DNA from: Escherichia phage UFV-AREG1
Length of the DNA: 64,000 bases
Reading direction: 5' to 3' (one strand)
Sequence record: KX009778
The notes beneath the pieces are model-generated. The model did no database searches, was not told the origin of the DNA, and saw only the letters and a list, made by a program, of their open reading frames with translations. A program made the position numbers and the translations under genes. Below, one piece after another: positions 1,635 to 30,363 of this stretch; the stretch's first letter is position 1; each line of letters starts with the position of its first letter.

Positions 1635-3259
<1,625 letters not shown>

Positions 3260-3260
<1 letters not shown>

Positions 3261-3499
3261 TGGAAGGTTTAATTGAAGCTATTAAATCAAACGACCTCGT
3301 AGCCGCTCGTAAATTATTTTCTGAAGCCATGGCTGCAAGAACGATTGATTTAATTAAAGAAGAAAAAATCGCTATCGCTCGTAATTTCTTAATCGAAGGT
3401 GAAGAACCTGAAGACGAGGATGAAGATGATGACGAAGATAGCGATGATAAAGACGACAAAAAAGACAAAGACTCTGACGAAGACGAGGATGATGAATAA
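3260..3499 (+). CDS. 67: Prohead core protein gp67 (acidic internal peptide precursor)
   Basis: 79 aa, highly acidic D/E-rich C-terminus; position after gene 20. Confidence 0.9.
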
Positions 3500-3924
3500 T
3501 GCTTCTGATCCCTGAAACTCATGAATTAGTTCTCGAGAATGTCGAAGCACTTATTCCTGAAGCACAGGGTCGCTTTGACGAATTGTCTTCTGCTTTAAAT
3601 AAAGACGATATAAATACAATTGTCGAGAATATGCTTGATGATGAAACTGATTTAGCGATTGCATTAGCTTCTATTAATGAAAATATGCCGTTAAATGAAT
3701 TCATTGTTAAGCATGTTTCAGCTCGTGGTGAAATTACTCGCACTAAAGATCGCAAAACCCGCGAACGAAATGCATTTCAAACCACTGGGCTGTCTAAAGC
3801 AAAACGTAGACAAATTGCTCGTAAAGCTACCAAAACGAAGATTGCCAATCCAGCAGGTCAATCTCGTGCTCAGCGTAAGCGTAAAAAAGCTCTTAAACGC
3901 CGTAAAGCATTAGGATTAAGCTAA
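3499..3924 (+). CDS. 68: Prohead core protein gp68
   Basis: 141 aa, basic C-terminus; ATGA-type overlap with gene 67 stop; synteny. Confidence 0.88.
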
Positions 3925-4562
3925 TGAATGAACCCCAATTACTAATTGAAACTTGGGGTCAACCTGGCGAAATTATTGATGGCGTGCCAATGCTTGAATC
4001 TCACGATGGAAAAGACTTAGGTTTAAAACCGGGTTTATACATCGAAGGAATATTCATGCAAGCGGAAGTCGTCAATAGAAATAAACGTCTTTATCCAAAA
4101 CGCATATTAGAAAAAGCGGTAAAAGACTATATCAATGAGCAAGTTTTAACTAAACAAGCTCTCGGAGAATTAAATCATCCTCCACGCGCTAATGTTGACC
4201 CGATGCAAGCCGCTATCATTATAGAAGATATGTGGTGGAAAGGAAATGACGTATACGGACGAGCTCGTGTTATTGAAGGTGACCACGGTCCTGGAGATAA
4301 ATTAGCAGCTAATATTCGTGCCGGATGGATTCCAGGAGTTTCTTCTCGTGGATTAGGTTCATTGACTGACACAAATAAAGGTTATCGTATCGTAAACGAA
4401 GGATTCAAATTAACTGTAGGTGTTGATGCAGTATGGGGTCCAAGTGCTCCAGATGCATGGGTAACTCCTAAGGAAATTACCGAATCACAGACGGCGGAAG
4501 CCGATACAAGTGCCGATGACGCCTATATGGCTCTCGCAGAGGCCATGAAAAAAGCGTTATAA
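3924..4562 (+). CDS. 21: Prohead core protease gp21
   Basis: 212 aa, matches T4 prohead protease length and sequence. Confidence 0.93.
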   Translation: MNEPQLLIETWGQPGEIIDGVPMLESHDGKDLGLKPGLYIEGIFMQAEVVNRNKRLYPKRILEKAVKDYINEQVLTKQALGELNHPPRANVDPMQAAIIIEDMWWKGNDVYGRARVIEGDHGPGDKLAANIRAGWIPGVSSRGLGSLTDTNKGYRIVNEGFKLTVGVDAVWGPSAPDAWVTPKEITESQTAEADTSADDAYMALAEAMKKAL

Positions 4563-4592: not shown

Positions 4593-5402
4593 ATGCTTAA
4601 AGAACAACTGATTGCCGAAGCGCAGAAAATTGATGCTTCCGTTGCTCTTGATAGTATTTTCGAATCAGTTAATATTTCTCCGGAAGCAAAAGAAACTTTC
4701 GGCACTGTATTCGAAGCTACCGTCAAGCAGCACGCCGTTAAATTAGCTGAATCTCATATCGCTAAAATTGCTGAAAAAGCAGAAGAAGAAGTAGAAAAAA
4801 ATAAAGAAGAAGCCGAAGAAAAAGCTGAGAAGAAAATCGCTGAGCAAGCTTCTAAATTCATCGACCATCTTGCGAAAGAATGGCTCGCTGAAAATAAATT
4901 AGCAGTTGATAAAGGCATCAAAGCCGAACTGTTTGAATCCATGCTTGGTGGATTAAAAGAGCTCTTTGTTGAACACAACGTTGTTGTTCCAGAAGAATCA
5001 GTTGATGTTGTAGCTGAAATGGAAGAAGAGCTGCAAGAACATAAAGAAGAATCAGCTCGTCTGTTCGAAGAACTCAATAAGCGTGACGCATATATCAATT
5101 ATGTGCAGCGTGAAGTGGCATTGAGCGAAAGTACTAAAGATCTGACTGAGTCTCAAAAAGAAAAAGTCTCTGCTCTGGTCGAAGGTATGGATTATTCAGA
5201 TGAATTCTCAAGTAAATTGAGTGCCATCGTAGAAATGGTGAAGAAGTCTAATAAAGATGAAAGCACTATTACTGAGGGTATAAATACTCCTGATACTGAA
5301 GCAGCCGGACTGAATTTCGTCACTGAAGCTGTAGAAGATAAAGCTGCACCTGGTGCAGAAGATATTGTAAGTGTATATGCGAAAGTCGCATCTCGTTTCT
5401 AA
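4593..5402 (+). CDS. 22: Prohead scaffold core protein gp22
   Basis: 269 aa, E/K-rich helical scaffold protein; synteny. Confidence 0.93.
   Translation: MLKEQLIAEAQKIDASVALDSIFESVNISPEAKETFGTVFEATVKQHAVKLAESHIAKIAEKAEEEVEKNKEEAEEKAEKKIAEQASKFIDHLAKEWLAENKLAVDKGIKAELFESMLGGLKELFVEHNVVVPEESVDVVAEMEEELQEHKEESARLFEELNKRDAYINYVQREVALSESTKDLTESQKEKVSALVEGMDYSDEFSSKLSAIVEMVKKSNKDESTITEGINTPDTEAAGLNFVTEAVEDKAAPGAEDIVSVYAKVASRF
5279..5286 (+). promoter_or_regulatory. T4 late promoter TATAAATA inside 3' end of gene 22 (gene 23 promoter position)
   Basis: Exact octamer about 135 nt upstream of gene 23 start. Confidence 0.6.
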
Positions 5403-5420
5403 TTTTAAAGGTTAACACAA

Positions 5421-6986
5421 ATGACTATCAAAACTAAAGCTGAACTTTTGAACAAATGGAAGCCATTACTGGAAGGTGAAGGTTTACCGGAAATTGCTAA
5501 TAGCAAACAAGCGATTATCGCTAAAATCTTTGAAAACCAGGAAAAAGATTTCCAGACAGCTCCGGAATATAAAGACGAAAAAATTGCTCAGGCATTTGGT
5601 TCTTTCTTAACAGAAGCTGAAATCGGTGGTGACCACGGTTACAATGCTACTAACATCGCTGCAGGTCAGACTTCTGGCGCAGTAACTCAGATTGGCCCGG
5701 CTGTTATGGGTATGGTACGTCGTGCTATTCCTAACCTGATTGCTTTCGATATTTGCGGTGTTCAACCAATGAGCAGCCCAACCGGTCAGGTATTCGCACT
5801 CCGCGCGGTATATGGTAAAGATCCGATCGCTTCCGATGCTAAAGAAGCATTCCACCCAATGTATGGTCCAGACGCAATGTTCTCTGGTCAGGGTGCTGCT
5901 AAGAAATTCCCAGCTCTGGCTGCTAGCACACAAACCGTTGTAGGTGATATCTATACTCACTTCTTCCAGGAAACTGGTACTGTGTATCTGCAAGCTTCCG
6001 CTGTAGTAACAATCGATGCTGGTGCGACTGATGCTGCTAAATTAGATGCTGAAATTAAGAAACAAATGGAAGCTGGTGTACTGGTAGAAATCGCTGAAGG
6101 TATGGCTACTTCTATCGCTGAACTTCAGGAAGGTTTCAACGGTTCTACCGATAACCCATGGAATGAAATGGGCTTCCGTATCGATAAACAAGTTATCGAA
6201 GCTAAATCTCGCCAGCTGAAAGCTGCTTACTCTATCGAATTAGCACAAGACCTCCGCGCTGTTCACGGTATGGATGCTGATGCTGAACTGTCTGGTATTC
6301 TGGCTACCGAAATCATGCTGGAAATCAACCGCGAAGTTGTTGATTGGATTAACTACTCGGCTCAGGTTGGTAAATCTGGTATGACCCTGACTCCGGGTTC
6401 TAAAGCTGGTGTATTTGACTTCCAGGATCCGATTGATATTCGTGGTGCTCGCTGGGCGGGTGAATCCTTTAAAGCTCTGTTGTTCCAGATTGACAAAGAA
6501 GCAGTTGAAATTGCTCGTCAGACCGGTCGTGGTGAAGGTAACTTCATTATCGCTTCCCGTAACGTAGTTAACGTTCTGGCTTCAGTTGATACTGGCATTT
6601 CTTATGCTGCACAGGGTCTGGCTACCGGCTTTAACACTGATACTACCAAGTCAGTATTTGCGGGTGTTCTGGGTGGTAAATACCGTGTATATATCGACCA
6701 GTATGCTAAACAGGATTATTTCACTGTAGGTTATAAAGGTCCGAACGAAATGGATGCTGGTATTTACTATGCTCCATATGTAGCTCTGACTCCGCTGCGT
6801 GGTTCCGATCCGAAGAACTTCCAACCAGTAATGGGATTCAAAACTCGTTACGGTATCGGTATCAACCCATTTGCAGAATCCGCTGCTCAGGCTCCGGCTT
6901 CTCGCATCCAGAGCGGTATGCCTTCTATTCTGAATAGCCTTGGTAAAAACGCTTACTTCCGCCGTGTATATGTTAAAGGTATCTAA
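5421..6986 (+). CDS. 23: Major capsid protein gp23
   Basis: 521 aa, sequence MTIKTKAELLNKWKPLLEGEGLPEIANSKQAIIAKIFENQEKDF… matches T4 gp23. Confidence 0.97.
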   Translation: MTIKTKAELLNKWKPLLEGEGLPEIANSKQAIIAKIFENQEKDFQTAPEYKDEKIAQAFGSFLTEAEIGGDHGYNATNIAAGQTSGAVTQIGPAVMGMVRRAIPNLIAFDICGVQPMSSPTGQVFALRAVYGKDPIASDAKEAFHPMYGPDAMFSGQGAAKKFPALAASTQTVVGDIYTHFFQETGTVYLQASAVVTIDAGATDAAKLDAEIKKQMEAGVLVEIAEGMATSIAELQEGFNGSTDNPWNEMGFRIDKQVIEAKSRQLKAAYSIELAQDLRAVHGMDADAELSGILATEIMLEINREVVDWINYSAQVGKSGMTLTPGSKAGVFDFQDPIDIRGARWAGESFKALLFQIDKEAVEIARQTGRGEGNFIIASRNVVNVLASVDTGISYAAQGLATGFNTDTTKSVFAGVLGGKYRVYIDQYAKQDYFTVGYKGPNEMDAGIYYAPYVALTPLRGSDPKNFQPVMGFKTRYGIGINPFAESAAQAPASRIQSGMPSILNSLGKNAYFRRVYVKGI

Positions 6987-7001
6987 TCTTTGACGATTTA
7001 A

Positions 7002-7025
7002 GGGACCTTCGGGTCCCTTTAGTTG
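7002..7025 (+). terminator. Intrinsic terminator after gene 23 (gggacc-ttcg-ggtccc + T run)
   Basis: Perfect 6 bp GC stem, UUCG loop, followed by T-rich tract. Confidence 0.7.
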
Positions 7026-7034
7026 TTTTTATGG

Positions 7035-7042
7035 TATAAATA
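7035..7042 (+). promoter_or_regulatory. T4 late promoter TATAAATA upstream of gene 24
   Basis: Exact octamer about 28 nt upstream of ATG. Confidence 0.6.
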
Positions 7043-7069
7043 AATCATATAAACCAAAAGGAAAGCGCA

Positions 7070-8353
7070 ATGGCTAAAATCAACGAACTTCTGCGCGAAT
7101 CAACCACAACGAATAGCAACTCAATCGGTCGCCCAAATCTCGTTGCTTTGACTCGCGCTACCACTAAATTAATATATTCTGACATTGTAGCAACGCAAAG
7201 AACTAATCAACCTGTTGCTGCTTTTTATGGTATCAAATACCTTAACCCAGATAACGAATTTACGTTTAAAACTGGTGCTACTTACGCTGGCGAAGCTGGA
7301 TATGTAGACCGAGAACAAATCACAGAATTAACAGAAGAGTCTAAATTAACTCTCAATAAAGGCGATTTATTCAAATATAATAATATCGTTTATAAAGTAT
7401 TAGAAGATACACCATTTGCTGATATTGAAGAAAGCGATTTAGAATTAGCTCTTCAGATTGCAATCGTTCTTTTAAAGGTTCGTCTATTTTCTGATGCTGC
7501 AGTAACAAGCAAATTTGAAAGCTCTGATAGTGAAATTGCGGATGCTAGATTCCAGATTAATAAATGGCAAACCGCAGTTAAATCTCGTAAACTTAAAACT
7601 GGTATCACAGTTGAATTAGCACAAGATTTAGAAGCAAATGGATTCGATGCTCCTAATTTCTTAGAAGATTTGCTTGCAACTGAAATGGCAGATGAAATCA
7701 ATAAAGATATTCTGCAGTCTTTGATTACAGTGTCAAAACGCTATAAAGTTACAGGAATTACTGACACTGGATTCATTGATTTGAGTTATGCATCTGCACC
7801 TGAAGCTGGTCGTTCATTATACCGAATGGTATGTGAAATGGTTTCACATATCCAAAAAGAATCAACTTACACAGCAACGTTCTGTGTTGCTTCAGCTCGT
7901 GCCGCCGCGATTCTTGCTGCATCAGGTTGGTTAAAACATAAACCAGAAGATGACAAATATCTTTCACAAAATGCCTATGGATTCTTAGCTAATGGTTTAC
8001 CGCTTTATTGCGATACTAACAGCCCATTAGATTATGTAATCGTTGGTGTAGTAGAAAATATTGGCGAAAAAGAAATTGTTGGGTCAATTTTCTATGCTCC
8101 GTATACAGAAGGTCTCGACTTAGATGACCCTGAACATGTAGGTGCATTTAAAGTTGTAGTTGATCCAGAAAGTTTGCAGCCATCTATCGGTTTATTGGTT
8201 AGATATGCTTTATCTGCAAATCCTTACACTGTAGCAAAAGATGAAAAAGAAGCAAGAATAATTGATGGTGGAGACATGGATAAAATGGCGGGTCGTTCAG
8301 ATTTGTCTGTTTTATTAGGTGTTAAGCTACCAAAAATTATTGTTGATGAATAA
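7070..8353 (+). CDS. 24: Capsid vertex protein gp24
   Basis: 427 aa, gp23 paralog; no segD-like ORF lies between 23 and 24 here. Confidence 0.93.
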   Translation: MAKINELLRESTTTNSNSIGRPNLVALTRATTKLIYSDIVATQRTNQPVAAFYGIKYLNPDNEFTFKTGATYAGEAGYVDREQITELTEESKLTLNKGDLFKYNNIVYKVLEDTPFADIEESDLELALQIAIVLLKVRLFSDAAVTSKFESSDSEIADARFQINKWQTAVKSRKLKTGITVELAQDLEANGFDAPNFLEDLLATEMADEINKDILQSLITVSKRYKVTGITDTGFIDLSYASAPEAGRSLYRMVCEMVSHIQKESTYTATFCVASARAAAILAASGWLKHKPEDDKYLSQNAYGFLANGLPLYCDTNSPLDYVIVGVVENIGEKEIVGSIFYAPYTEGLDLDDPEHVGAFKVVVDPESLQPSIGLLVRYALSANPYTVAKDEKEARIIDGGDMDKMAGRSDLSVLLGVKLPKIIVDE

Positions 8354-8360
8354 AACAAAG

Positions 8361-8381
8361 GGACCTTTCGGTCCCTTTTTA
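8361..8381. terminator. Bidirectional hairpin terminator between gene 24 (+) and rnlB (-)
   Basis: gggacc-tttc-ggtccc followed by ttttt. Confidence 0.65.
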
Positions 8382-8382
8382 T

Positions 8383-9387
8383 TTAACTTACCAATTCAAT
8401 CCAAGCCGGACGAAGTACATCTTGTACCATTTTAACTAATTCCTTTTTAATCAAAGAAGGATTATCCGCTTGAGTTAGAGTAATACCTTCACGAGAAGTT
8501 TCTTCCAAAATATCTTGAACAGTTAGTCCCATCACCTTTCCAAAATCTTTTGGACCAATTTCACCAATTTTAGAAATAACGTTATTTACTCGGTTCAGTG
8601 TAACGTAGCAAGCTAAAATTCCCAGCAATTTATTATCAGCTTCTGACAGCTCAACTTTAGCTTTAATAGGCTTATCAGACTTTTTCTTTTCGCTAAATTT
8701 AGAGTTCTTGCATTTGATGGCTACACGATTGCCATTAGGCATCCAAGAAGGATAACAAGGTTTCAATACATATCCTTCAGCGGTAAATACTTCGCCTTTG
8801 GCTTCGGCATTCCAAACGCATTTATTTGCATCAACTAATCCAGCATGGTCTACTGTAAAATTATAATCTTGGACAACAGAATCTAAATCATTTGGCAATT
8901 TAATAAGCTCTTCAAATTTACCGCGGCCTAAAAGTGGAGCCATTTTAAATTTAAATGTATTACAGAATGATTCCATCATATAATCATCGACATAAGTCAC
9001 ATCACCACTTTCTGTAGTGACAATAATGTCAAATACATAAAAATCTTTATCACCATAATCAACATTCTTCTGAATGCCAGGTCCAGCGAATTCACCAAAG
9101 ACTTGATAAGATACAACTGCTGAAGTTTCCATAATATCTTGTACTGCTTTAATGGAATCAGCGTAATTCTTCAAAATAATTTCATACCCAAAGAAATCTT
9201 CAGCAGGAAGAATAGGACCAGTACGTTTAGCGCAAGTTACTTTATCACGCTCAATAATCAACGAGAAATTTGTGCCATGAATCTTTTCACGAGCTACCCA
9301 CTCCCCACCAGTCAATCCCAAGCTATAAAGTTTTTCAATAAATTTAGAGTTGTAATGATTTTCAAGACTGCTATACTTTTTAAACAT
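8383..9387 (-). CDS. rnlB: RNA ligase 2 (Rnl2)
   Basis: 334 aa; nucleotidyltransferase motif I KIHGTN near N-terminus; matches T4 Rnl2. Confidence 0.93.
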
Positions 9388-9396
9388 AATTAATCC

Positions 9397-9675
9397 TCAA
9401 AATGTAATTTCTAACCAATCACCATCACGCTGATCACTATTAACTTTAAAGCTAAATCCTTCTTTTCTCAGCCAATCACCAATTTCTTCAGTAATCAATT
9501 TATCACGAGCAATGCAATAATAACTAAAATGTGTTTTACCTTGTTCAGCTGCTTTATTAGCAAGTTCTGAAAAATCTTTAATAAAGCACTCTAGCTTAAA
9601 CTGTTTACTTTTTAATGCTTTTTCGCGCAATTGATTAGCAAAAGATTCATTTTCATAAAGATCATACTGTTCCAT
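9397..9675 (-). CDS. Hypothetical protein (T4 24.2 position)
   Basis: 92 aa ORF between rnlB and hoc. Confidence 0.7.
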   Translation of the reverse strand: MEQYDLYENESFANQLREKALKSKQFKLECFIKDFSELANKAAEQGKTHFSYYCIARDKLITEEIGDWLRKEGFSFKVNSDQRDGDWLEITF

Positions 9676-9877
9676 TTTTCACCTTTTTATTGATATGTCT
9701 TTTTCTATAGACAACTTTTTCTCGAGTTTCAAATTTATTCTTAGCAGTCATAGCTCGAGCCCATAATACAGCCACTTCTTTTGCCTGTAAGTTTAATTCA
9801 CGAGCAATTTCAATGAATGACTTTCCAGACTCATGAAGAGTAAACACCACAACCTCAGTTCTCATAATCAATCTCAT
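9662..9877 (-). CDS. Hypothetical protein (T4 24.3 position)
   Basis: 71 aa ORF overlapping the downstream ORF by 14 nt. Confidence 0.65.
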   Translation of the reverse strand: MRLIMRTEVVVFTLHESGKSFIEIARELNLQAKEVAVLWARAMTAKNKFETREKVVYRKRHINKKVKNGTV

Positions 9878-9946
9878 GTTATCGAGTTGGTGCCATTATA
9901 TACATCATTTTCTGATTGTGTTTTGTGTGCTTTCAAAATGAAGAAA

Positions 9947-9960
9947 GGGGCCGAAGCCCC
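9947..9960 (-). terminator. Hairpin ggggc-cgaa-gcccc downstream of hoc
   Basis: GC stem-loop followed by T run in minus sense. Confidence 0.6.
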
Positions 9961-9966
9961 TTACGA

Positions 9967-11097
9967 TTATGGATAGGTATAGATGATACCAGTTTCTAAA
10001 GCAGTTTTATGAATGATGTATCCATTACGTGATTCTTGAACATCAACTTCTGGATAGTCTTTCATCATCTTCTGAAGAGTATAACGATGCAAGTAGTATT
10101 TACTATCTGGATCGTCAGTTTTCCAATCTTTACCTTCTTCGGTCATTTTTTGGATTTCATCCATAACCCACCAACCGCACCAGATGTAAGCTGAAGTACG
10201 ATGTGGAAGAGGATGAACATAAGGTAATTCACCTTCTGGTTCTGGAGCAACTTTATCAGTTACCTGAACTTGACCTTCTGCTGTAATAGTTTTGCTATCA
10301 TAATCAGTAGCAGTAACAGTTGCAGTAACTTCAATAGTTTGACTTCCAATAGATGAGGTATCAACGGTATATACATTAGTTGACCCTTCTACAGGAGAAG
10401 AATCTTTCTTCCATGAATATTCAATTTGCGCTTCTTCTGGAGCATCCGTAACATTAGCCGTAAATGTAGCCGAAGCATCTTGCTGAACGTTAATAGAAGG
10501 AGGAGTCAATGTAATCTGTGGATTCATTGTCTTCTTATTAACAGTCAGTGATACTTCATTAGAAGTAACTTCTTTTGCATCATAATCTGTTGCCGTCACT
10601 TGGGCTACACATTTAATTCTTTTTACTCCACTTGTAGTTGGAGTATAGCTAAATGTAGCGTTAGTTGCTTCGCTCACAGGAGAATCATCTACATGCCACT
10701 GATACGTAGCAGATGCGCCTGATGGTTGAGAAGCTAAAGCAGCAGTAAATTCAACAGCTGTTCCGATTACTCCAGCAGCAGGGCTATCAGGAGTTACAGC
10801 CAATGTAGTTGTCTGAGTTTTATTTTGAACTGTGATAGTAGTTGACGCTTGAGCTGTTTCAGCTTCAGTATCAGGAACTGGATTTGTTGCAACTACCTTA
10901 ATAGTCTTTTGACCGGCAGGTCCTTTTAACACATAATCAAAAGTTGCCTCTGATCCTTCCTGAGGAACATCATCTACAGTCCAAGCATATGTAATAGGTC
11001 CATCTCCAGTTTGACCACTGGGCGTAGCAGTAAACTGCTGAGTCTGATCTATAACTCCAGTAGGTGTTTTAGGAGTTATATCAACTGTAAAAGCCAT
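9967..11097 (-). CDS. hoc: Highly immunogenic outer capsid protein Hoc (Ig-like domains)
   Basis: 376 aa, T/S-rich tandem Ig-like domain pattern; length matches T4 Hoc. Confidence 0.92.
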   Translation of the reverse strand: MAFTVDITPKTPTGVIDQTQQFTATPSGQTGDGPITYAWTVDDVPQEGSEATFDYVLKGPAGQKTIKVVATNPVPDTEAETAQASTTITVQNKTQTTTLAVTPDSPAAGVIGTAVEFTAALASQPSGASATYQWHVDDSPVSEATNATFSYTPTTSGVKRIKCVAQVTATDYDAKEVTSNEVSLTVNKKTMNPQITLTPPSINVQQDASATFTANVTDAPEEAQIEYSWKKDSSPVEGSTNVYTVDTSSIGSQTIEVTATVTATDYDSKTITAEGQVQVTDKVAPEPEGELPYVHPLPHRTSAYIWCGWWVMDEIQKMTEEGKDWKTDDPDSKYYLHRYTLQKMMKDYPEVDVQESRNGYIIHKTALETGIIYTYP

Positions 11098-11106
11098 AAG
11101 TTATCC

Positions 11107-11787
11107 TTATTTTAATGTTACGAAAGAAGAATTGCGTGTTTCACGAATTAAAACTGATCCGTCACGGTTAATGTAATAAATTAAGCTAAATAAAGTTTGG
11201 TGTGCTGACGCGTGTTCAAAACTAGTTGGGTGAGATTTCCAATCCGGAGTTTCAGCAATCCATTGATAAATCCACCAAGGAACAGTACAGAATCCTGGAT
11301 TTTTTCCAATCAGCTGAAGATTCGGACTAAAGTTTTCCGGAAGAGTAAATACAGACGGCTTTTCAGATTCAATAATCTCAGCTACGGCCTGCTCGAATTT
11401 TTCTTCAACAAAAGGAGTATCTTCAATCAAAACATCGGTATTTTCGGGAATTTTATCCGTTTCGACTACTTCAATTTTAATGTCAGATTTAACCGGAGAA
11501 TCAATCAGAAGTGCTGCTTCTGGATTGACTTCTTCATCGTCATATTTTAATCCCTCTGCGGCATCAGCAGCATTGATTAAGTCTTTAATAGATAACCCAT
11601 CAGTCTCTGGCATAGGTTCACTAGCGAGCTTCTGGAGGGCTTCTTCAATATCAATAACGATATTATCAAAAGATTTATTCTTTTTGACCTTTATACCAAA
11701 CTGTTCAGCATATTCAGCTAATTTAGCTTTAGCTTCTTTATTATCATCAAGAGCCTTCAGCTCTGCAATATAATCTTTATCTATCAT
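11107..11787 (-). CDS. inh: Inhibitor of prohead protease Inh
   Basis: 226 aa, position after hoc. Confidence 0.85.
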   Translation of the reverse strand: MIDKDYIAELKALDDNKEAKAKLAEYAEQFGIKVKKNKSFDNIVIDIEEALQKLASEPMPETDGLSIKDLINAADAAEGLKYDDEEVNPEAALLIDSPVKSDIKIEVVETDKIPENTDVLIEDTPFVEEKFEQAVAEIIESEKPSVFTLPENFSPNLQLIGKNPGFCTVPWWIYQWIAETPDWKSHPTSFEHASAHQTLFSLIYYINRDGSVLIRETRNSSFVTLK

Positions 11788-22592: not shown

Positions 22593-22883
22593 TTATTTAC
22601 GGAATGAAATAAAAGCAGCAACTGAAGCAACAGAGGTTTCTTCAATATAAACCTCAATTTTTACCGGAGCTTCTGACTCAAATTTACCTGTTACTACACC
22701 TTGGAAAATACTTTCAGTCTGTTCTGGCTTTGAAAAATTTTCAGAAGGAAAAATTCCAAACTTTTTATCGGTTCCGAAAATTTTAATAAATTCATCATAA
22801 ACTGCTTCATTGAAAGCGTTATCAGCGGGAATAACGCCTTCAACGACGAGTTCTTGACCTAAAAAGCGCAAAGAAGATTTCAT
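22593..22883 (-). CDS. Hypothetical protein (alt.-3 position)
   Basis: 96 aa ORF with its own T4-type early promoter and leader upstream. Confidence 0.7.
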   Translation of the reverse strand: MKSSLRFLGQELVVEGVIPADNAFNEAVYDEFIKIFGTDKKFGIFPSENFSKPEQTESIFQGVVTGKFESEAPVKIEVYIEETSVASVAAFISFRK

Positions 22884-22914: not shown

Positions 22915-22944
22915 ACTATAACACAATACGAGGGACTTGTAAAC
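22915..22944 (-). promoter_or_regulatory. T4 early-type promoter (GTTTACA-N17-TATAGT) upstream of the 96 aa ORF
   Basis: -35 at 22938..22944 and -10 at 22915..22920 in minus sense. Confidence 0.55.
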
Positions 22945-25001
22945 TACATTTTGAACTTTTTAGACATTCTGTTGATGTTAACCAAAGAAGCTAAGATTTG
23001 AGAAACTTCGCTTTCCTCTTCTTTTGATTCTTCTACAAGGAATTGATTAAATCCAGCCATTGGACGAACTTCACCAGTTTCCATCAGATGGTCGCCATCA
23101 TATACTGATTCTTCTAATTGTTCAGAAGGAGGAACGATTGTACCTTCGATTAGATACTTATTATAAGCAGTTTCTTTCATCATGTACGTACTTACTTTAT
23201 TAATCTTCAGTAAAATTCCACGTGGTAGAATAACTTCAGCTTCTGATGGAAATCCTGATAAATGACCCGGAACGATAACTTTAACTCGTTCAGCTCCTTT
23301 AATTACCATACCTACATTAGTTTCAGCGTCTTCATTCGCATATGTAGAATGACTACCCATATGCATTAAATCTTCAGCATCAACTGAACCTTCTCCTTCA
23401 CCAGAAAATACTGCTCCGGAATCATCTAAGGCCATATAATTTTTACCATATTCACCGAAGATATTTGGCTTGAGTGAAGTAGATACAAAGTTCTTGAAAT
23501 AGAACATTTTATTTTCTATATTATGACGCAAAGTTTTAAAGGTAACTTCTTGCCCACGATAAAGAGTAGTTCCTGGAGGAAGAACTGAACCTTTAGAAAA
23601 TGCAGAATCCAGCGTCTCAATATGTTTAATAGCTCGTTCCATATATTCTTCACGGGTAGAATCAGGTTTACCTAAAAGGAATGAGTTCATTTCAACATAT
23701 GAATCTGCACAATAATCTTCAATTACATCAGATTCAGCCTGAGTTAATCCTTTTGGAGTTACTTCAGTGCTTGCATATTCATATGCCTGAGCAGCAGATT
23801 CATCAATTAATTTATAAATTCCATTCATTACAAATTGAATAATAGCTGTCTTTTCATCTGGTGTAGCTTTAGAACCTTTAACTAAATCATTGATAATTTT
23901 CTTAATAACATCAAAACTATTAGAAATATTAATGTCAGCAAGATCGCTTAAAATTTTATCAGTTTTATAATCAAAGAATTCTTTATTCTTTAAATATTCT
24001 TGAGAACCTTGATATGTTATATCGCTCTGCAGCTTGATAGATGGATCGCGTAAACGTGCATGGGCCAATGCAATATGATTTCGGAAGCTTTCTAGTTCAT
24101 AATCGCTAGATTTAAAACGAGAAGCACTTCTCATACCACCGATAGCTCCTTTGCTAAAGTTTGAACCAATCTGAATAACGCCAGAGTTCATTGATCCTTC
24201 TGCTTTATATACCGGAACTTTAGATTCAAACTCTTGATATTTCTTAGCAGCGAAGCTATCACCCTGGAGTGAAGCGTCAACAGTAGAATATTGAGCTTGG
24301 GCTGCTAATCGACGACTGATTTTAGTTTTCTGAATAACAGCTTGATCCGTGCGCTTATCATTTTCTAAAGCAATAGAAGCAGCAACAGCAACAGCTTTAG
24401 GAACAGCATTACCTGTTTTAACGTCTACATAAACATCACCAACCTTTGATTCAACTTTTGTGAATAACTCGGTTGAAATAGGAGGTACACCTGGAATGTC
24501 TTCTAATTTGGCATTTTTACGGTAAACCATAATATATGCGTACTTTTTATCATAATCCCAGATTTCCTTTAAAAGAACATATCGACCTGCTCCTTTAGTA
24601 CGTACTAAACGGTCAGCAATAACTTGCATTTGCCGAGCAGCGCCATTTGTTTTACTTTTTAGTACGCGGAATAGGCATGCATCAATTTTATACTGTTTCA
24701 TTGTTTGAAGAGCAGTATCAAAAACAGCATTAATGACGCCAATTGGATTTCCACCCAAGTTTTTAAGCTTAACTAATGATAGTTTCTCATTAACACCTAT
24801 CATTACGATATGCATCATTTTGTCGCCTGGCTTAACGTTTTTATTCGTATCACCGCCAGAGGTGTATGTACAAAATCTAAATCCAGGAAGCACGCTTTCT
24901 TCACCTGCTTGAATAGCAAAAATTTGAGGTATTTTATGCTTAGGATTTAAGTTAACAACCGGCGCCGAAGCGCCGTCAAATAATTCTGTAATAAGTTCCA
25001 T
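22944..25001 (-). CDS. Alt-family ADP-ribosyltransferase paralog (alt.-2 position)
   Basis: 685 aa; N-terminus MELITELFD… shared with upstream Alt; ART motifs LYRGQ, FVSTSL, EAEVILPRG. Confidence 0.85.
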   Translation of the reverse strand: MELITELFDGASAPVVNLNPKHKIPQIFAIQAGEESVLPGFRFCTYTSGGDTNKNVKPGDKMMHIVMIGVNEKLSLVKLKNLGGNPIGVINAVFDTALQTMKQYKIDACLFRVLKSKTNGAARQMQVIADRLVRTKGAGRYVLLKEIWDYDKKYAYIMVYRKNAKLEDIPGVPPISTELFTKVESKVGDVYVDVKTGNAVPKAVAVAASIALENDKRTDQAVIQKTKISRRLAAQAQYSTVDASLQGDSFAAKKYQEFESKVPVYKAEGSMNSGVIQIGSNFSKGAIGGMRSASRFKSSDYELESFRNHIALAHARLRDPSIKLQSDITYQGSQEYLKNKEFFDYKTDKILSDLADINISNSFDVIKKIINDLVKGSKATPDEKTAIIQFVMNGIYKLIDESAAQAYEYASTEVTPKGLTQAESDVIEDYCADSYVEMNSFLLGKPDSTREEYMERAIKHIETLDSAFSKGSVLPPGTTLYRGQEVTFKTLRHNIENKMFYFKNFVSTSLKPNIFGEYGKNYMALDDSGAVFSGEGEGSVDAEDLMHMGSHSTYANEDAETNVGMVIKGAERVKVIVPGHLSGFPSEAEVILPRGILLKINKVSTYMMKETAYNKYLIEGTIVPPSEQLEESVYDGDHLMETGEVRPMAGFNQFLVEESKEEESEVSQILASLVNINRMSKKFKM

Positions 25002-25004
25002 GAT

Positions 25005-27098
25005 TTATCCTTGAACGAACTTGTAAGGCATGTTTGTAATATCTATGCAAGACGCAATAATTCCAAGAGATGATTCTACTTTCTGTTTAATATTTGATGA
25101 AACAAATGATGCAAAGTCAACTCTGTCTTCTATTTCAATATCACCTGTCATTGCAACCAATTCACCAGTTTCCATTAAATGGTCTCCATCATAGATTACC
25201 GATTCGGTGAGCTCTTCCGTGGTCATAACTTCAGCTTGAATGAGTTTTGTATTATTAGATGTTGTTCCGTCATTATTAGAAGCATCGATTATTTTATTAA
25301 CTTTGACCATCAATCCACGCGGTAGAATAACTTCAGCTTCTGTTGCTATTCCGAGACTTCCTGGATATACAACATTAACTTTATGAGCTCCATCAATTGC
25401 CCATCCTATTTGAACTTTAACATATTCAGGATTTTCTTTATACGCTCTTATTTCGTTTGGATTAATAGTTATTCCTTCTTCATTTTTATCAACTGTTAAT
25501 TCATTGCGAGCTCCTGGTTCTAAAAGACCAATACCAGCATGTGTGATTCCAAAACGTCCAAAAATGATAGGAGTTAAAGAAGTAGATACAAAATTTCTGA
25601 AGTAGAACACTTTATTTTTAACTAACGCTTCATATATAGGAGCAGTCATACTTTGAGCACGATAAACTGTAATGCCTTCTGGTATACGGTCACCATTTTC
25701 AAAAGCTGAATCTAAGTTATTTATAGCAGATTCAATTTCTTTTTCACTCATTACATCATATCGTTCTGGATTGTAACGACCTAAAAGAAGATTATTGATG
25801 TCAGTATATCCTGAACCGCAATATTCTCTAATGCCACGCTTTTGTGATGGAGTATATTTAGAACCATCGCGGGCAATAGTAATATCAATCATTGGACCAG
25901 CACCAATTCCAGAAAAACTGTAAATCATTCGTTTGAGGAATTTAGTTTTTGCTGCGTTCCAGGAATTTTTAGTTATTTCTTCCCAGACTTCATCTGGTTG
26001 TCCTTTACGATTTTTATTATGATTAGCAAGCCATTTATCTTTATAATCTTCAAAGAATTGATTTACAGCTGCTGCGTATTTCTCTAAACATTTTATTGAA
26101 GTAGTTGGTTCATTTTTAATTGCATTAAAAATTACTTCTTTAATTTTTTCTGAAACTTCACCGACTTGACTCATTGGAAAGAATTTATAATCATAGTGAA
26201 GTTCATCTGCCGTTCCTTCAGCAATAATTTTTGCTGCCTTTGTTTTAGAAGCTAATGAATTAATTCCAATTTTCATTTCTTCTGCTTCGGGAATTAAAGG
26301 TGCAGTAGCTGGTTTATTAAAATTAGCTGCTGTAGATTCATACTTCTGGAATAATTCACTTTCAAATCTAGAAGATTCCAATGACTGACTTTGTGCAATT
26401 GCTCTACGGGAAATTTTAACTTTAACGATTACAGCTTGGTCAGAACGTTTATCATTTTCTTGCGCAATAGATGCTGCAATTGCTTCATTTTTAGTTACTT
26501 GAGCTCCAGTATCTTTATTGATATAAACATCACCGACCTTCGATTCAACTTTAGTAAAGAGTTCAGTGCTAATTTCTGGAACTCCTGGAATGTCTTCTAG
26601 TGATACATTTTTGCGATGTATAAGAATATATGCATACTTTTTATCATAATCCCAGAGTTCCTTAAGAAGGACGTATCTGCCACCTGAACGACTACGGATA
26701 AGTCTATCAGCAATAACTTGAATTTGTCGAGCTTGGCCAGCAGTTTTAGACTTAAGAATACGAAGCATACAAGCATCAATTTTATACTGACGCATTGTTT
26801 GCATTGCAACAGTAAAAACTGAATTGATATAATTAATTGGGCTTGGCCCAAGACCTTTCAATTTAGCAATTGAACCTTTAGCAGTTAATGTAAAAGGAAC
26901 AATATGCATCATTTTATCGCCCATCTTTAAATCACGATTAGTATCACCTCCAGATGTATAGGTACATAAACGAAAGCCTGGTTGTTCAATTGCGTCATCG
27001 ACATGAACTGAAAAAATTTGTGGTATCTTCTTCTTTGGATTTAAGTTTGTAATCGGAAGAGTAGTATCTTCGTCAAATAATTCTGTAATAAGTTCCAT
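25005..27098 (-). CDS. alt: ADP-ribosyltransferase Alt
   Basis: 697 aa; ART motifs VYRAQ, FVSTSL, EAEVILPRG; minus-strand late promoter upstream, consistent with a virion-packaged Alt. Confidence 0.88.
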   Translation of the reverse strand: MELITELFDEDTTLPITNLNPKKKIPQIFSVHVDDAIEQPGFRLCTYTSGGDTNRDLKMGDKMMHIVPFTLTAKGSIAKLKGLGPSPINYINSVFTVAMQTMRQYKIDACMLRILKSKTAGQARQIQVIADRLIRSRSGGRYVLLKELWDYDKKYAYILIHRKNVSLEDIPGVPEISTELFTKVESKVGDVYINKDTGAQVTKNEAIAASIAQENDKRSDQAVIVKVKISRRAIAQSQSLESSRFESELFQKYESTAANFNKPATAPLIPEAEEMKIGINSLASKTKAAKIIAEGTADELHYDYKFFPMSQVGEVSEKIKEVIFNAIKNEPTTSIKCLEKYAAAVNQFFEDYKDKWLANHNKNRKGQPDEVWEEITKNSWNAAKTKFLKRMIYSFSGIGAGPMIDITIARDGSKYTPSQKRGIREYCGSGYTDINNLLLGRYNPERYDVMSEKEIESAINNLDSAFENGDRIPEGITVYRAQSMTAPIYEALVKNKVFYFRNFVSTSLTPIIFGRFGITHAGIGLLEPGARNELTVDKNEEGITINPNEIRAYKENPEYVKVQIGWAIDGAHKVNVVYPGSLGIATEAEVILPRGLMVKVNKIIDASNNDGTTSNNTKLIQAEVMTTEELTESVIYDGDHLMETGELVAMTGDIEIEDRVDFASFVSSNIKQKVESSLGIIASCIDITNMPYKFVQG

Positions 27099-27122
27099 GT
27101 TATCCTCTCTAGTGTTTATTCT

Positions 27123-27130
27123 ATTTATAA
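27123..27130 (-). promoter_or_regulatory. T4 late promoter TATAAATA on minus strand upstream of alt
   Basis: Plus tatttata = reverse complement of TATAAATA, 25 nt upstream of alt ATG. Confidence 0.6.
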
Positions 27131-27136
27131 AATTAA

Positions 27137-27150
27137 AGGCCCGAAGGCCT
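27137..27150 (-). terminator. Hairpin aggcc-cgaa-ggcct downstream of the gene 30 operon
   Basis: GC stem-loop between the 61 aa ORF and alt. Confidence 0.5.
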
Positions 27151-27154
27151 TTAA

Positions 27155-27340
27155 TTAATAGAGAGCTAAAAGAGTACGATATACTTCAAACTTTGGACCT
27201 TTTTCATATGGATCAAATCTTTCCGTGAATTCATCATATGCTAGTTTATCTGGGAATTCAAGAATAACCTGCGATACCGCAGTGGAAACATCTCCACCTT
27301 CTTTTTGAGCCACGACAATTGTTTCTAAGTAAGCTTTCAT
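27155..27340 (-). CDS. Hypothetical small protein
   Basis: 61 aa ORF overlapping DNA ligase stop by 4 nt. Confidence 0.65.
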   Translation of the reverse strand: MKAYLETIVVAQKEGGDVSTAVSQVILEFPDKLAYDEFTERFDPYEKGPKFEVYRTLLALY

Positions 27341-29066: not shown

Positions 29067-29902
29067 TAGAATGCTCCTTGGAAAATATTATCACCACTAG
29101 TAGGTCTATTATACAAATACTCTATGCCACCGGGTTTAATATAGTTCCATGTCTGAAACGGATGTGTATAATATGGATGATATGGATTATAAGGATTAAA
29201 TCCAGGAGTTCTCCAGGTAGTATTCCAACGAAAAGAATCGTTTTTAATCATCTTTTCAATTACATCTTTTATAGCTTTTTCACTATCAAAACTTTCTTTA
29301 TTTTCCTTCGATGGAAAAAGCTTATTCTCTACATCATTCCATGTATAAACTCGCTGTGCAGTTTTTGGAATACTATCACGCTCCCCTCGAGCCATCCAAT
29401 AAACAGGAACATTTAATATTTCACTCGCGTGATCGCAGTGGTGAGCGAGATCGTCAATATAACAAATTACGTTATATTTCTCTTTTGCCTTTTTGAACAA
29501 CTCTTCTTTTGAAGAATCATGACCACACATCAATACTTCTGAAAAGGCACCAGGAAAAAGAGCATTCAAATTAAATTGACGATTCAGCAGAGCGTCAATA
29601 GAATCACCCAATGCTGTAACAGCTACAAAATTATAATCTTCTTTTAATTTGTTAATTACGCACAGAGCATCTTTATATGGAGACAAGTAACGAATAAAAT
29701 CTGAACGATTGTATTTTTCAATTAACTTGACGCCAAGTTCTTCATCACAATTAAAGAGTTTACCTGGAGAAATAAATTTCTCATCTTGGATCATTTTTAA
29801 AATATGTTCCAACGGAAGATTATATTTCTGAGCAAAATAAGGAAGACCTGATTGCCAGCTTAAACATACTCCATCAATATCAGTTAAAATAGTAGGCTTC
29901 AT
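29066..29902 (-). CDS. Hypothetical protein with HAD-like N-terminal DxDG motif (30.2 position)
   Basis: 278 aa; N-terminal TDIDGV motif typical of HAD phosphatases. Confidence 0.7.
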   Translation of the reverse strand: MKPTILTDIDGVCLSWQSGLPYFAQKYNLPLEHILKMIQDEKFISPGKLFNCDEELGVKLIEKYNRSDFIRYLSPYKDALCVINKLKEDYNFVAVTALGDSIDALLNRQFNLNALFPGAFSEVLMCGHDSSKEELFKKAKEKYNVICYIDDLAHHCDHASEILNVPVYWMARGERDSIPKTAQRVYTWNDVENKLFPSKENKESFDSEKAIKDVIEKMIKNDSFRWNTTWRTPGFNPYNPYHPYYTHPFQTWNYIKPGGIEYLYNRPTSGDNIFQGAF

Positions 29903-30363
29903 AAAGAGTCTCTTAATAAGTTTAACACATCAATAAATTCAGCTTCGGTTAGTATTGTATCATCTTTTGTTAGACCACTAGCCATGCTGTGCTTCAAAAT
30001 TTTTCCTTTAGAGGCTTGTAAGGCATCACGAAACCCCTTGTTTTGGATCGCGGCTTCAAAATATGCATTTGTGTATAATTCTTTCCACGCCGGGGAGTAT
30101 CTTGAAAACGGAACTCCAAGCCAAAAGAGGGTCCCACGGTCCTGAGCTCTAGCATAAGACCTTCCAGCTTGTTGGGCGGCAAGCCCGGATAACCCAAATA
30201 TACGACGTTGTTGTTCAACATTTTTCACCTTACACCCTTGGAGGAATCCTTCAAGACCTCCAAATTGAATACCATCCATAACGAAAGGCCATTGGGCGAA
30301 ATTACTTAATGCACATGATGGCCATCTAAAATTACTTCTAATCTCTAACTCAGACATTTTCAA
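29899..30363 (-). CDS. Hypothetical protein (30.3 position)
   Basis: 154 aa ORF in tightly packed operon. Confidence 0.7.
   Translation of the reverse strand: MKMSELEIRSNFRWPSCALSNFAQWPFVMDGIQFGGLEGFLQGCKVKNVEQQRRIFGLSGLAAQQAGRSYARAQDRGTLFWLGVPFSRYSPAWKELYTNAYFEAAIQNKGFRDALQASKGKILKHSMASGLTKDDTILTEAEFIDVLNLLRDSL

Follow-up and report, generated by a model that had tools for sequence, protein, structure and literature searches.

Two tandem Alt-family genes in phage UFV-AREG1

We analyzed a 64,000-nucleotide (nt) stretch of the genome of Escherichia phage UFV-AREG1 (sequence record KX009778; hereafter, the window), which carries two adjacent genes of the Alt family of ADP-ribosyltransferases (ARTs). 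A first-pass annotation, made from the sequence without database searches, had placed two tandem Alt-family genes at positions 22,944-27,098. This span is exact: both open reading frames (ORFs) are present, and both encoded proteins match the ART family PF03496. We refer to these proteins as Alt1 and Alt2 (Table 1). Both genes lie on the minus strand, as do alt.1 and the DNA ligase gene gp30 on their upstream side, while the plus-strand neighbors are gp29, gp48, and gp54. The overall context is the classical T4 arrangement, and the pair occupies the position of the Alt family, between DNA ligase/alt.1 and alt.-3/gene 54 with a late promoter motif upstream.

Alt1 and Alt2 are 42% identical overall (E = 3e-161 in a pairwise BLASTP comparison), and this identity is unevenly distributed. 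In a block alignment (Alt1 numbering), the two proteins share 68% identity over amino acids (aa) 1-238, 15% over aa 239-415, where they are practically unalignable, 36% over the ART domain (aa 416-627), 61% over aa 628-650, a block that includes the conserved motif YDGDHLMETGE, and 30% over the C-terminal ~47 aa. The alignment thus agrees with the first-pass annotation, which had described a conserved first third with diverged central regions and extreme C-termini. Both genes open with the same 27 nt, encoding MELITELFD (positions 27072-27098 and 24975-25001, minus strand), with only ~73% DNA identity across the whole N-terminal domain. The identical start suggests that the start of translation or the targeting peptide is under constraint, or that gene conversion occurred recently.

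We drew further loci from GenBank phage records and Logan/ENA contigs; a scan of IMG/VR returned five. A 4.8-kb region spanning the locus is found at ≥80% coverage in 353 phage records, and the closest relatives are phages vB_EcoM-UFV05, 06, 09, 10, and 11 (99.1% identity over 4.8 kb). The Alt2-specific central region is present at ≥90% identity (tblastn) in 400 phage records, including T2, T6, RB3, PP01, wV7, and ime09. T2, T6, and RB51 encode the same pair of 697- and 685-aa proteins, and Alt2 is 92-100% identical per block to its orthologs in such pairs. Protein clusters contain 772 members for Alt2 and 641 for Alt1. The second gene is annotated as alt.-2 in RB51, ime09, and T6, the T6 record adding “apparent insertion in alt.-2; also similar to alt”, and a common annotation in other records is “Alt-like RNA polymerase ADP-ribosyltransferase (x2)”. 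That alt has paralogous duplications, T4 alt.-1/alt.-2 among them, was pointed out in 2006 (PMC1524935) and also in the T4 record. Overall, the tandem pair is already known and annotated, and any implication that it is unusual does not hold: with T2, T6, RB51, and ~400 genomes carrying it, the pair is the ordinary T-even state and T4 is the exception.

Table 1. Features of the alt locus in the window, and hybrid alt genes in two related phages.
Feature	Position	Strand	Description
Alt1	25005..27098	minus	697 aa, Alt ADP-ribosyltransferase of the T2/T6 allelic type; starts MELITELFD
Alt1 N-terminal domain (aa 1-238)	26385..27098	minus	Pfam PF26846 Tevenvirinae_ADPRT type
Alt1 ART catalytic domain (aa 416-632)	25203..25853	minus	PF03496 match over aa 378-627, E = 2.9e-36
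Alt2	22944..25001	minus	685 aa, second Alt paralog, full-length form of T4 alt.-1/alt.-2; starts MELITELFD
Alt2 N-terminal domain (aa 1-237)	24291..25001	minus	68% identical to the Alt1 N-terminal domain
Alt2 central all-helical region (aa 238-415)	23757..24290	minus	paralog-specific; helical in the AlphaFold2 model
Alt2 ART catalytic domain (aa 416-631)	23109..23756	minus	PF03496 match over aa 416-620, E = 1.8e-20
Alt2 predicted C-terminal propeptide (aa 632-685)	22947..23108	minus	opens with the conserved SVYDGDHLMETGE block
Late promoter motif TATAAATA	27122..27129	minus	T4-type, 23 nt upstream of the Alt1 ATG; putative, from the motif alone
G+C-rich hairpin AAAGGCCTTCGGGCCTTT	27135..27152	minus	read from the sequence; closes the alt.1/gene 30 unit, directly before the late promoter
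Second TATAAATA	25718..25725	minus	within Alt1
Junction AAGGA-TAA-ATC-ATG	25002..25012	minus	Shine-Dalgarno sequence in the final Alt1 codons, stop, 3-nt spacer, Alt2 start
alt.1	27155-27340	minus	upstream of Alt1, followed by DNA ligase gp30
alt.-3	22593-22883	minus	DUF5498, 96 aa; directly downstream of Alt2
Hybrid alt, Yersinia phage PST (KF208315)	2501-4561 of locus L019		complete genome, cultured phage
Hybrid alt, Escherichia phage ECML-134 (NC_025449)	2501-4561 of locus L020		complete genome, cultured phage

Both paralogs retain intact ART catalytic residues

Alt1 and Alt2 score 125.1 and 73.6 bits, respectively, against PF03496 (ADPrib_exo_Tox), for which the gathering score is 23.4. 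Both proteins also match PHROG 802 over their full length (Alt1, E = 6.5e-272; Alt2, E = 5.7e-256); no NCBIfam family is matched by either. PF26846 and PF03496 are both recorded for homologs (proteins P0001, 98% identical, and P0095, and locus L012). The catalytic motifs, which the first-pass annotation had described as intact in both paralogs, are where it placed them: YRAQ at 479, STS at 505, and EAEVILPRG at 587 in Alt1, and YRGQ at 481, STS at 507, and EAEVILPRG at 587 in Alt2. The corresponding catalytic residues are R480, S505-T506-S507, and E587-x-E589 in Alt1, and R482, S507-T508-S509, and E587-x-E589 in Alt2. Among 21-23 Alt-family sequences, R482, Q484, S507, S509, E587, and E589 are invariant. 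By PF03496 score and by the positions of the Arg, STS, and ExE motifs, both proteins are predicted mono-ADP-ribosyltransferases of the R-S-E clade.

A single-sequence search of the Protein Data Bank with Alt2 alone returned no match. With a family profile, the YRG and ExE motifs of Alt2 are placed on the catalytic YR and Q/E-x-E motifs of C3cer (4xsg) and BECa (5gtt). An AlphaFold2 model of Alt2 (mean predicted local distance difference test score (pLDDT) of 72) likewise predicts an ART fold: Foldseek matches the modeled domain to Vis, C3 (C3bot), Certhrax, CDTa, and VIP2 at a probability of 1.00, with TM-scores normalized by target length of 0.54-0.64 for single-domain ARTs. In C3/VIP2-type ARTs, an E-x-E rather than a Q-x-E sequence in the ADP-ribosylating toxin turn-turn (ARTT) motif predicts specificity for arginine. 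By analogy, Alt2 is predicted to be arginine-specific. Its paralog-specific central helical region is a candidate for a substrate-recognition or adaptor part.

We compared Alt2 with its orthologs in T2, T6, RB51, FL34, sb2, and two IMG/VR contigs, all of which contain an intact 685-aa ORF. The ratio of non-synonymous to synonymous substitution rates (dN/dS) is 0.04-0.06 over the whole protein and 0.03-0.05 in the ART domain, at a dS of 0.17-0.26 and with 66-97 synonymous versus 14-23 non-synonymous changes. Against an ortholog of 75% identity, dN/dS is 0.14. For Alt1, dN/dS is 0.06-0.08, falling to 0.00-0.02 in the N-terminal domain among close orthologs. Purifying selection on Alt2 is thus as strong as, or stronger than, that on Alt1.

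Alt1 is a T2/T6-type allele

Alt1 is 92-100% identical per block to the Alt proteins of T2 and T6, and its central segment is 95.7% identical to that in the T2 alt record X69893. Alt1 is 15 aa longer than T4 Alt, with which it shares 100% identity over aa 1-238, 33% over aa 239-415, 64% over aa 416-627, and 96% over the final 70 aa. Alt1 shares its lineage with T4 Alt in the form of a divergent T2/T6 allele, and we regard it as an allelic variant rather than an identical ortholog. At ≥90% identity, 317 records contain the T2-type Alt1 cassette and 172 contain the T4-type. T4 Alt ADP-ribosylates Arg265 in the alpha subunit of RNA polymerase.

Alt2 is only 12% identical to T4 Alt in the center and 37% in the ART domain. 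Rather than being the ortholog of T4 Alt proper, it represents a separate paralog lineage.

T4 alt.-1 and alt.-2 are a deletion relic of Alt2

In T4, alt and alt.-3 are separated by a 421-nt spacer (positions 4034-4454 of the T4 locus, L001) containing two small ORFs annotated as hypothetical, alt.-1 and alt.-2 (61 and 67 aa). We found that nt 4-350 of this spacer correspond to nt 1-348 of Alt2 (96% identity) and are joined directly to the final 20 nt of Alt2 (100% identity). The missing 1.69 kb lies between two copies of a 9-bp repeat, CTAAAAAGT (Alt2 nt ~340-348 and ~2031-2039); both copies are present in the full-length gene, and the T4 junction falls within the repeat. A frameshift near codon 54 splits alt.-1 from alt.-2 in T4. 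In agreement, PHROGs 23015 and 15247, which were built on the T4 relics, match aa 1-56 and aa 62-117 of Alt2. T4 alt.-1/alt.-2 is therefore the same gene as Alt2 reduced to a deletion relic, and T4 lacks the second ART because of the 1.69-kb deletion and the frameshift. The T4 record describes the relic as “an old duplication of the first part of alt”, which understates the case, because the relic derives by deletion from a gene that was full-length. The first-pass annotation had raised the possibility that the second paralog is simply the standard, functionally characterized alt.-2 of T4. The identity with alt.-2 stands, Alt2 being its full-length counterpart; the characterization falls away, as the T4 version is a frameshifted deletion relic and not a characterized gene.

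The relic is also found in RB55, RB59, VEc20, SG1, vB_EcoM_112, and ACG-C40. The 5′ end of Alt2 is present in ~500 records and its center in ~400, so about one-fifth of these records carry the relic.

Predicted processing of Alt1 and Alt2 by the prohead protease

T4 Alt is a head-core protein of ~40 copies that is injected with the DNA (PMC9026906). Mass spectrometry has shown that the prohead protease gp21 cuts T4 Alt at ITE-6, which takes off 6 residues, and at LTE-619, which takes off 63; T4 Alt persists as a 68-kDa protein in the head (PMC5694885). At positions aligned to these two sites, Alt1 contains the gp21 motifs ITE-6 and LTE-632, and Alt2 contains ITE-6 and LEE-631. Both C-terminal sites directly precede the shared SV(I)YDGDHLMETGE block, and the Alt2 tail (aa 632-685) aligns with the 63 residues cut from T4 Alt. 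An L-x-E sequence occupies the C-terminal site in every paralog that we examined (LQE, LSE, or LAE in JS98 and fDHCT2), and none of them departs from glutamate at the P1 positions E6 and E631. Across 23 Alt-family sequences, E631, Y634, D635, G636, D637, E641, G643, and E644 are invariant. By analogy with T4 Alt, Alt2 would be cleaved by gp21 and packaged into the head; the predicted mature masses are 70.0 kDa for Alt1 and 69.2 kDa for Alt2. The N-terminal domain of Alt1 is presumed to be a head-core targeting module.

A putative shared late promoter and a tight gene junction

The first-pass annotation had noted a late promoter just upstream of the first gene, and a T4-type TATAAATA motif is indeed present there, followed by the sequence GAGAGGA and then the ATG of Alt1. 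The window contains 17 TATAAATA octamers, compared with 9.3 expected. The motif and its flanking hairpin are kept in T4, T2, and PST, and the Shine-Dalgarno sequence is conserved as well. In JS98, the promoter position reads CATAAATA, and the hairpin is invariant across T4, T2, PST, and JS98. A terminator scan of the sequence did not call this hairpin.

The Alt1/Alt2 junction is the same in T4, T2, and sb2 and reads AAGGGTAAATGATG in the Dhakavirus JS98, so that the tight AAGGATAAatcATG junction is retained even there. We infer that Alt1 and Alt2 are co-transcribed and translationally coupled. We considered the second TATAAATA motif, within Alt1, as a dedicated Alt2 promoter, and rejected it as a conserved feature: this motif occurs only in the T2-type cassette and is missing where a T4-type Alt1 precedes Alt2, as in phage sb2. 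It is therefore probably not a required promoter for Alt2.

Recombination has reshaped the alt locus

Alt2 groups with gene b of JS98 and gene c of Escherichia phage fDHCT2, sharing 45-58% identity in the center and ART domain (45% with JS98 gene b in the central region), compared with only 12-37% identity to Alt1-type genes in the same regions. Alt1 groups with the first genes of JS98 and fDHCT2, and the Alt2 ortholog is second in JS98 as well and third in fDHCT2. Since orthology of the protein bodies follows gene position, the duplication predates the split between Tequatrovirus and Dhakavirus. In the N-terminal domain, paralogs within a genome are 65-68% identical, compared with 42-47% for orthologs between genera. 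Because identity within genomes exceeds that between genera, the N-terminal domains appear to have undergone concerted evolution or repeated recombination.

We also identified loci in which a single hybrid alt gene (encoding 684-686 aa) between alt.1 and alt.-3 replaces the tandem pair, in four metagenomic or isolate contigs (L015-L018) and in phages PST and ECML-134. In each, an Alt1-type 5′ end is fused in frame to an Alt2-type remainder, and the six clean in-frame crossovers are all different (at aa ~50, 100, 106, 157, 184, and 221) and all fall within the N-terminal domain. Most of these hybrids come from short-read assemblies, and we considered whether they might be assembly artifacts. 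As a general explanation this was rejected, as the same single hybrid gene is present in the complete PST and ECML-134 genomes and the assembly of one metagenomic contig used k = 99. The occurrence of hybrids in viable cultured phages means that the N-terminal domains can substitute for each other and that an Alt2 body works with the targeting end of Alt1. PST and ECML-134 naturally lack the classical Alt catalytic body; judging from these genomes and the relics, neither effector body is indispensable.

Phage fDHCT2 (OR427838; L011, positions 5263-11523) contains three tandem alt genes encoding 694, 681, and 707 aa. The first has JS98-type flanks (97-100% identity) around a T2-type ART cassette (94%), and the middle gene is of a third, divergent type, whose ART domain shares ~40% identity with those of the other two genes. 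Together, the hybrids, relics, pairs, and this triple show that the locus can hold one gene, one gene plus a relic, two genes, or three. In these comparisons, the N-terminal domain and C-terminal tail behave as constant flanks, and the center and ART domain form an exchangeable cassette.

A model for Alt2 as a second injected effector

In our view, the locus is probably a late operon of two genes whose products are ADP-ribosyltransferases packaged into the head, with Alt2 as a second late-made, injected, arginine-specific ART. In this model, late transcription from the TATAAATA motif upstream of Alt1 would read through both genes, and Alt2 would be translated from its own Shine-Dalgarno sequence in the last Alt1 codons, starting 3 nt past the Alt1 stop. 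The shared ~240-aa N-terminal domain and the similar C-terminal tail would guide both proteins into the prohead scaffolding core, where gp21 would trim the six N-terminal residues (at ITE-6) and the tail (at LTE-632 in Alt1 and LEE-631 in Alt2), leaving mature proteins of ~70 kDa and ~69 kDa in the head. In the next infection, both enzymes would enter with the DNA and carry out NAD+-dependent mono-ADP-ribosylation of arginines in host proteins. Alt1 corresponds, as the T2/T6 allele, to the classical Alt, the enzyme known to modify RNA polymerase alpha, and Alt2 would most likely act on different or partly overlapping host proteins, given its old lineage, its distinct central helical region, and the distinct surroundings of its ARTT and phosphate-nicotinamide (PN) loops. 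The proposal of the first-pass annotation, that the pair could represent two injected effectors with different host targets, is plausible. It gains indirect support from the gp21 motifs kept at both ends of Alt2, the low dN/dS, the natural hybrids with their interchangeable N-terminal domains, and the divergence of the central and ARTT regions.

Several points weigh against this model. T4 and ~100 other records retain only the relic of Alt2, so Alt2 must be dispensable on at least some hosts. The L/I-x-E motif is short, and Alt2 contains seven such sites (internal ones include LKE-146, IDE-401, LIE-619, LME-641, and LVE-657), making a motif match weak by itself; the argument for cleavage therefore rests on position and invariance. 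The AlphaFold2 model of Alt2 is of moderate quality (pLDDT 72), with poor prediction of the loops that connect STS to ExE. Divergence in targets is predicted solely from the divergence in sequence, and both enzymes could still share RNA polymerase alpha. Finally, our literature search found no report of Alt2 being made, packaged, cleaved, injected, or active, and full-text searches for the function of full-length alt.-2 turned up only the 2006 note on alt paralogs (PMC1524935). We found no usable virion proteome: in the supplement for the related phage fD1, which lists particle-associated proteins, the page with genes 190-202 is illegible, and that preparation also scores DNA ligase as virion-associated, while the “proteomics” in the UFV-AREG1 and O177-phage papers is in silico only.

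We weighed three alternatives. The first is that Alt2 is a back-up or dosage copy, packaged and active on the same targets as Alt1, that adds dose or robustness. The architecture, catalytic residues, and processing motifs common to both proteins fit such a role, and overlapping function would be consistent with T4-type phages that lack Alt2 and with PST and ECML-134, which lack the Alt1 body. However, the two lineages have been distinct since before the Tequatrovirus/Dhakavirus split, with inter-lineage identities of 12-15% in the center and 35-39% in the ART domain, and yet each is conserved internally and under strong purifying selection. Since simple redundancy rarely keeps such divergent copies in ~80% of genomes, we regard this explanation as unlikely.

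We give still less weight to a second alternative, in which Alt2 is not injected and is instead a late intracellular enzyme or a mainly structural part of the head core, perhaps degraded by gp21 or acting in the producing cell. The literature offered no proteomic detection of Alt2, and its internal L/I-x-E sites might be cut. However, T4 Alt has comparable internal sites and persists as a 68-kDa head protein, invariance is concentrated at both mapped cleavage positions and in their surrounding residues, and a purely structural role is at odds with a dN/dS of 0.03-0.05 in the domain that holds the catalytic residues. On balance, we find this alternative improbable. The last alternative, that Alt2 is a duplicate decaying toward a pseudogene and its intact ORF is incidental, draws on the frameshifted or deleted relics in T4 and the six other phages named above, and we regard it as effectively ruled out by the intact 685-aa ORF and dN/dS of 0.04-0.06 in every ortholog examined, the 772-member protein cluster, and retention of the ortholog in Dhakavirus.

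Beyond the model of Alt2 as a second injected ART, we put forward a broader proposal more tentatively: the alt locus could serve as a cassette system encoding effectors delivered from the virion, in which a constant N-terminal head-targeting domain and a gp21-removed propeptide flank a swappable specificity/ART module, with Alt2 as a second injected arginine-specific ART that has its own targets. This module would be swapped between phages and even between genera, as in the first gene of fDHCT2 with its Dhakavirus flanks and T2-type cassette. If so, the target of Alt2 might be something other than RNA polymerase alpha, for example a defense factor or a translation factor, and the deployment of Alt2 by T2 and T6 and its loss from T4 could explain some of the differences among T-even phages in the earliest seconds of infection.

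Phage ADP-ribosylation at infection is known almost entirely from T4, which is atypical in having Alt2 deleted and in carrying the rarer Alt1 allele. Should Alt2 be injected and act on targets of its own, an uncharacterized enzyme would take part in host remodeling by T2, T6, and most therapeutic or environmental T4-like phages, which could affect host take-over, host range, and counter-defense. Natural controls exist for each combination: T4 has Alt1 only, PST and ECML-134 have the Alt2 body only, and T2 and T6 have both.

Comparison with other phage effectors and ART toxins

The pair resembles T4 Alt, with which it shares its locus, late promoter, hairpin, R/STS/ExE residues, and gp21 motifs at both ends, as well as the N-terminal domain, which is identical to that of T4 Alt in Alt1 and 68% identical in Alt2. 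It differs in that Alt1 here carries a T2/T6-type central and ART cassette. Compared with the pairs of T2, T6, RB51, wV7, PP01, and ime09, which have the same organization and gene lengths, we found no difference of substance. The Alt proteins share a predicted fold and the catalytic triad with R-S-E toxins of the C3-like, VIP2, and iota types, and share E-x-E with the arginine-specific members. However, sequence identity to these toxins is only 14-20%, and the toxins are secreted whereas Alt1 and Alt2, like T4 Alt, would be delivered from the phage head. Moreover, unlike the C3, VIP2, and iota toxins, Alt proteins possess a ~240-aa phage N-terminal domain, a ~180-aa helical region, and a putatively cleavable C-terminal tail.

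The T4 internal proteins IPI-III, which have a capsid targeting sequence (CTS), and MuF-fused or polyvalent effectors are similar in concept: their cargo is made late, directed into the core of the prohead, cut by gp21 at L/I-x-E sites, and injected with the DNA. In contrast to such cargo, T4 Alt loses only 6 N-terminal residues in addition to its C-terminal propeptide, and Alt has no MuF domain. The large, folded N-terminal domain may have a role in directing Alt proteins to the head.

The N-terminal domain as a possible carrier

Modeled alone with AlphaFold2, the N-terminal domain of Alt2 reaches a pLDDT of 84 and a predicted TM-score of 0.82. A sequence search of 1.84 billion proteins identified this domain in 69 cluster representatives, essentially all of 600-712 aa; it is always N-terminal and is nearly always followed by PF03496. 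Support for fusion of the domain to non-ART cargo therefore comes from structure matches only.

A Foldseek search of BFVD returned the fold of the N-terminal domain at the start of large uncharacterized proteins from unrelated myoviruses, which sequence searches miss, at a probability of 1.00 and TM-scores normalized by query length of 0.4-0.55. These matches include proteins of Dickeya phage RC-2014, Erwinia phage phiEa2809, Shigella phage MK-13, Vibrio phage VP-1, phage Kuja, and Agrobacterium phage Atu_ph07, and the annotations of some of them name zeta-toxin, cytidine deaminase, or ParB/Srx domains. As a lead from predicted structures only, the fold may be a general carrier domain for delivery from the head. 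BFVD also contains “split” Alt genes or ORFs comprising only the N-terminal domain (211-272 aa), for example in Acinetobacter phage Henu6 and Aeromonas phage 50AhydR13PP; the domain can therefore exist as a separate protein.

Additional observations in the window

Upstream of alt.-3, we identified a sigma-70-like promoter at positions 22915-22943 (minus strand; TTTACA-17-TATAGT) with an extended -10 TG. Because it has its own promoter of this type, alt.-3 is probably expressed early and outside the late alt operon. In T4, mutants with a C-terminal extension of Alt.-3 escape the CmdTAC defense system by blocking degradation of CmdA (PMC11618068).

Elsewhere in the window, a 75-aa ORF (29994-30221, minus strand) lies out of frame within a 154-aa homolog of gene 30.3 (29899-30363, minus strand). 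This ORF is the counterpart of the T4 annotation 30.3′, an internal translation in another frame.

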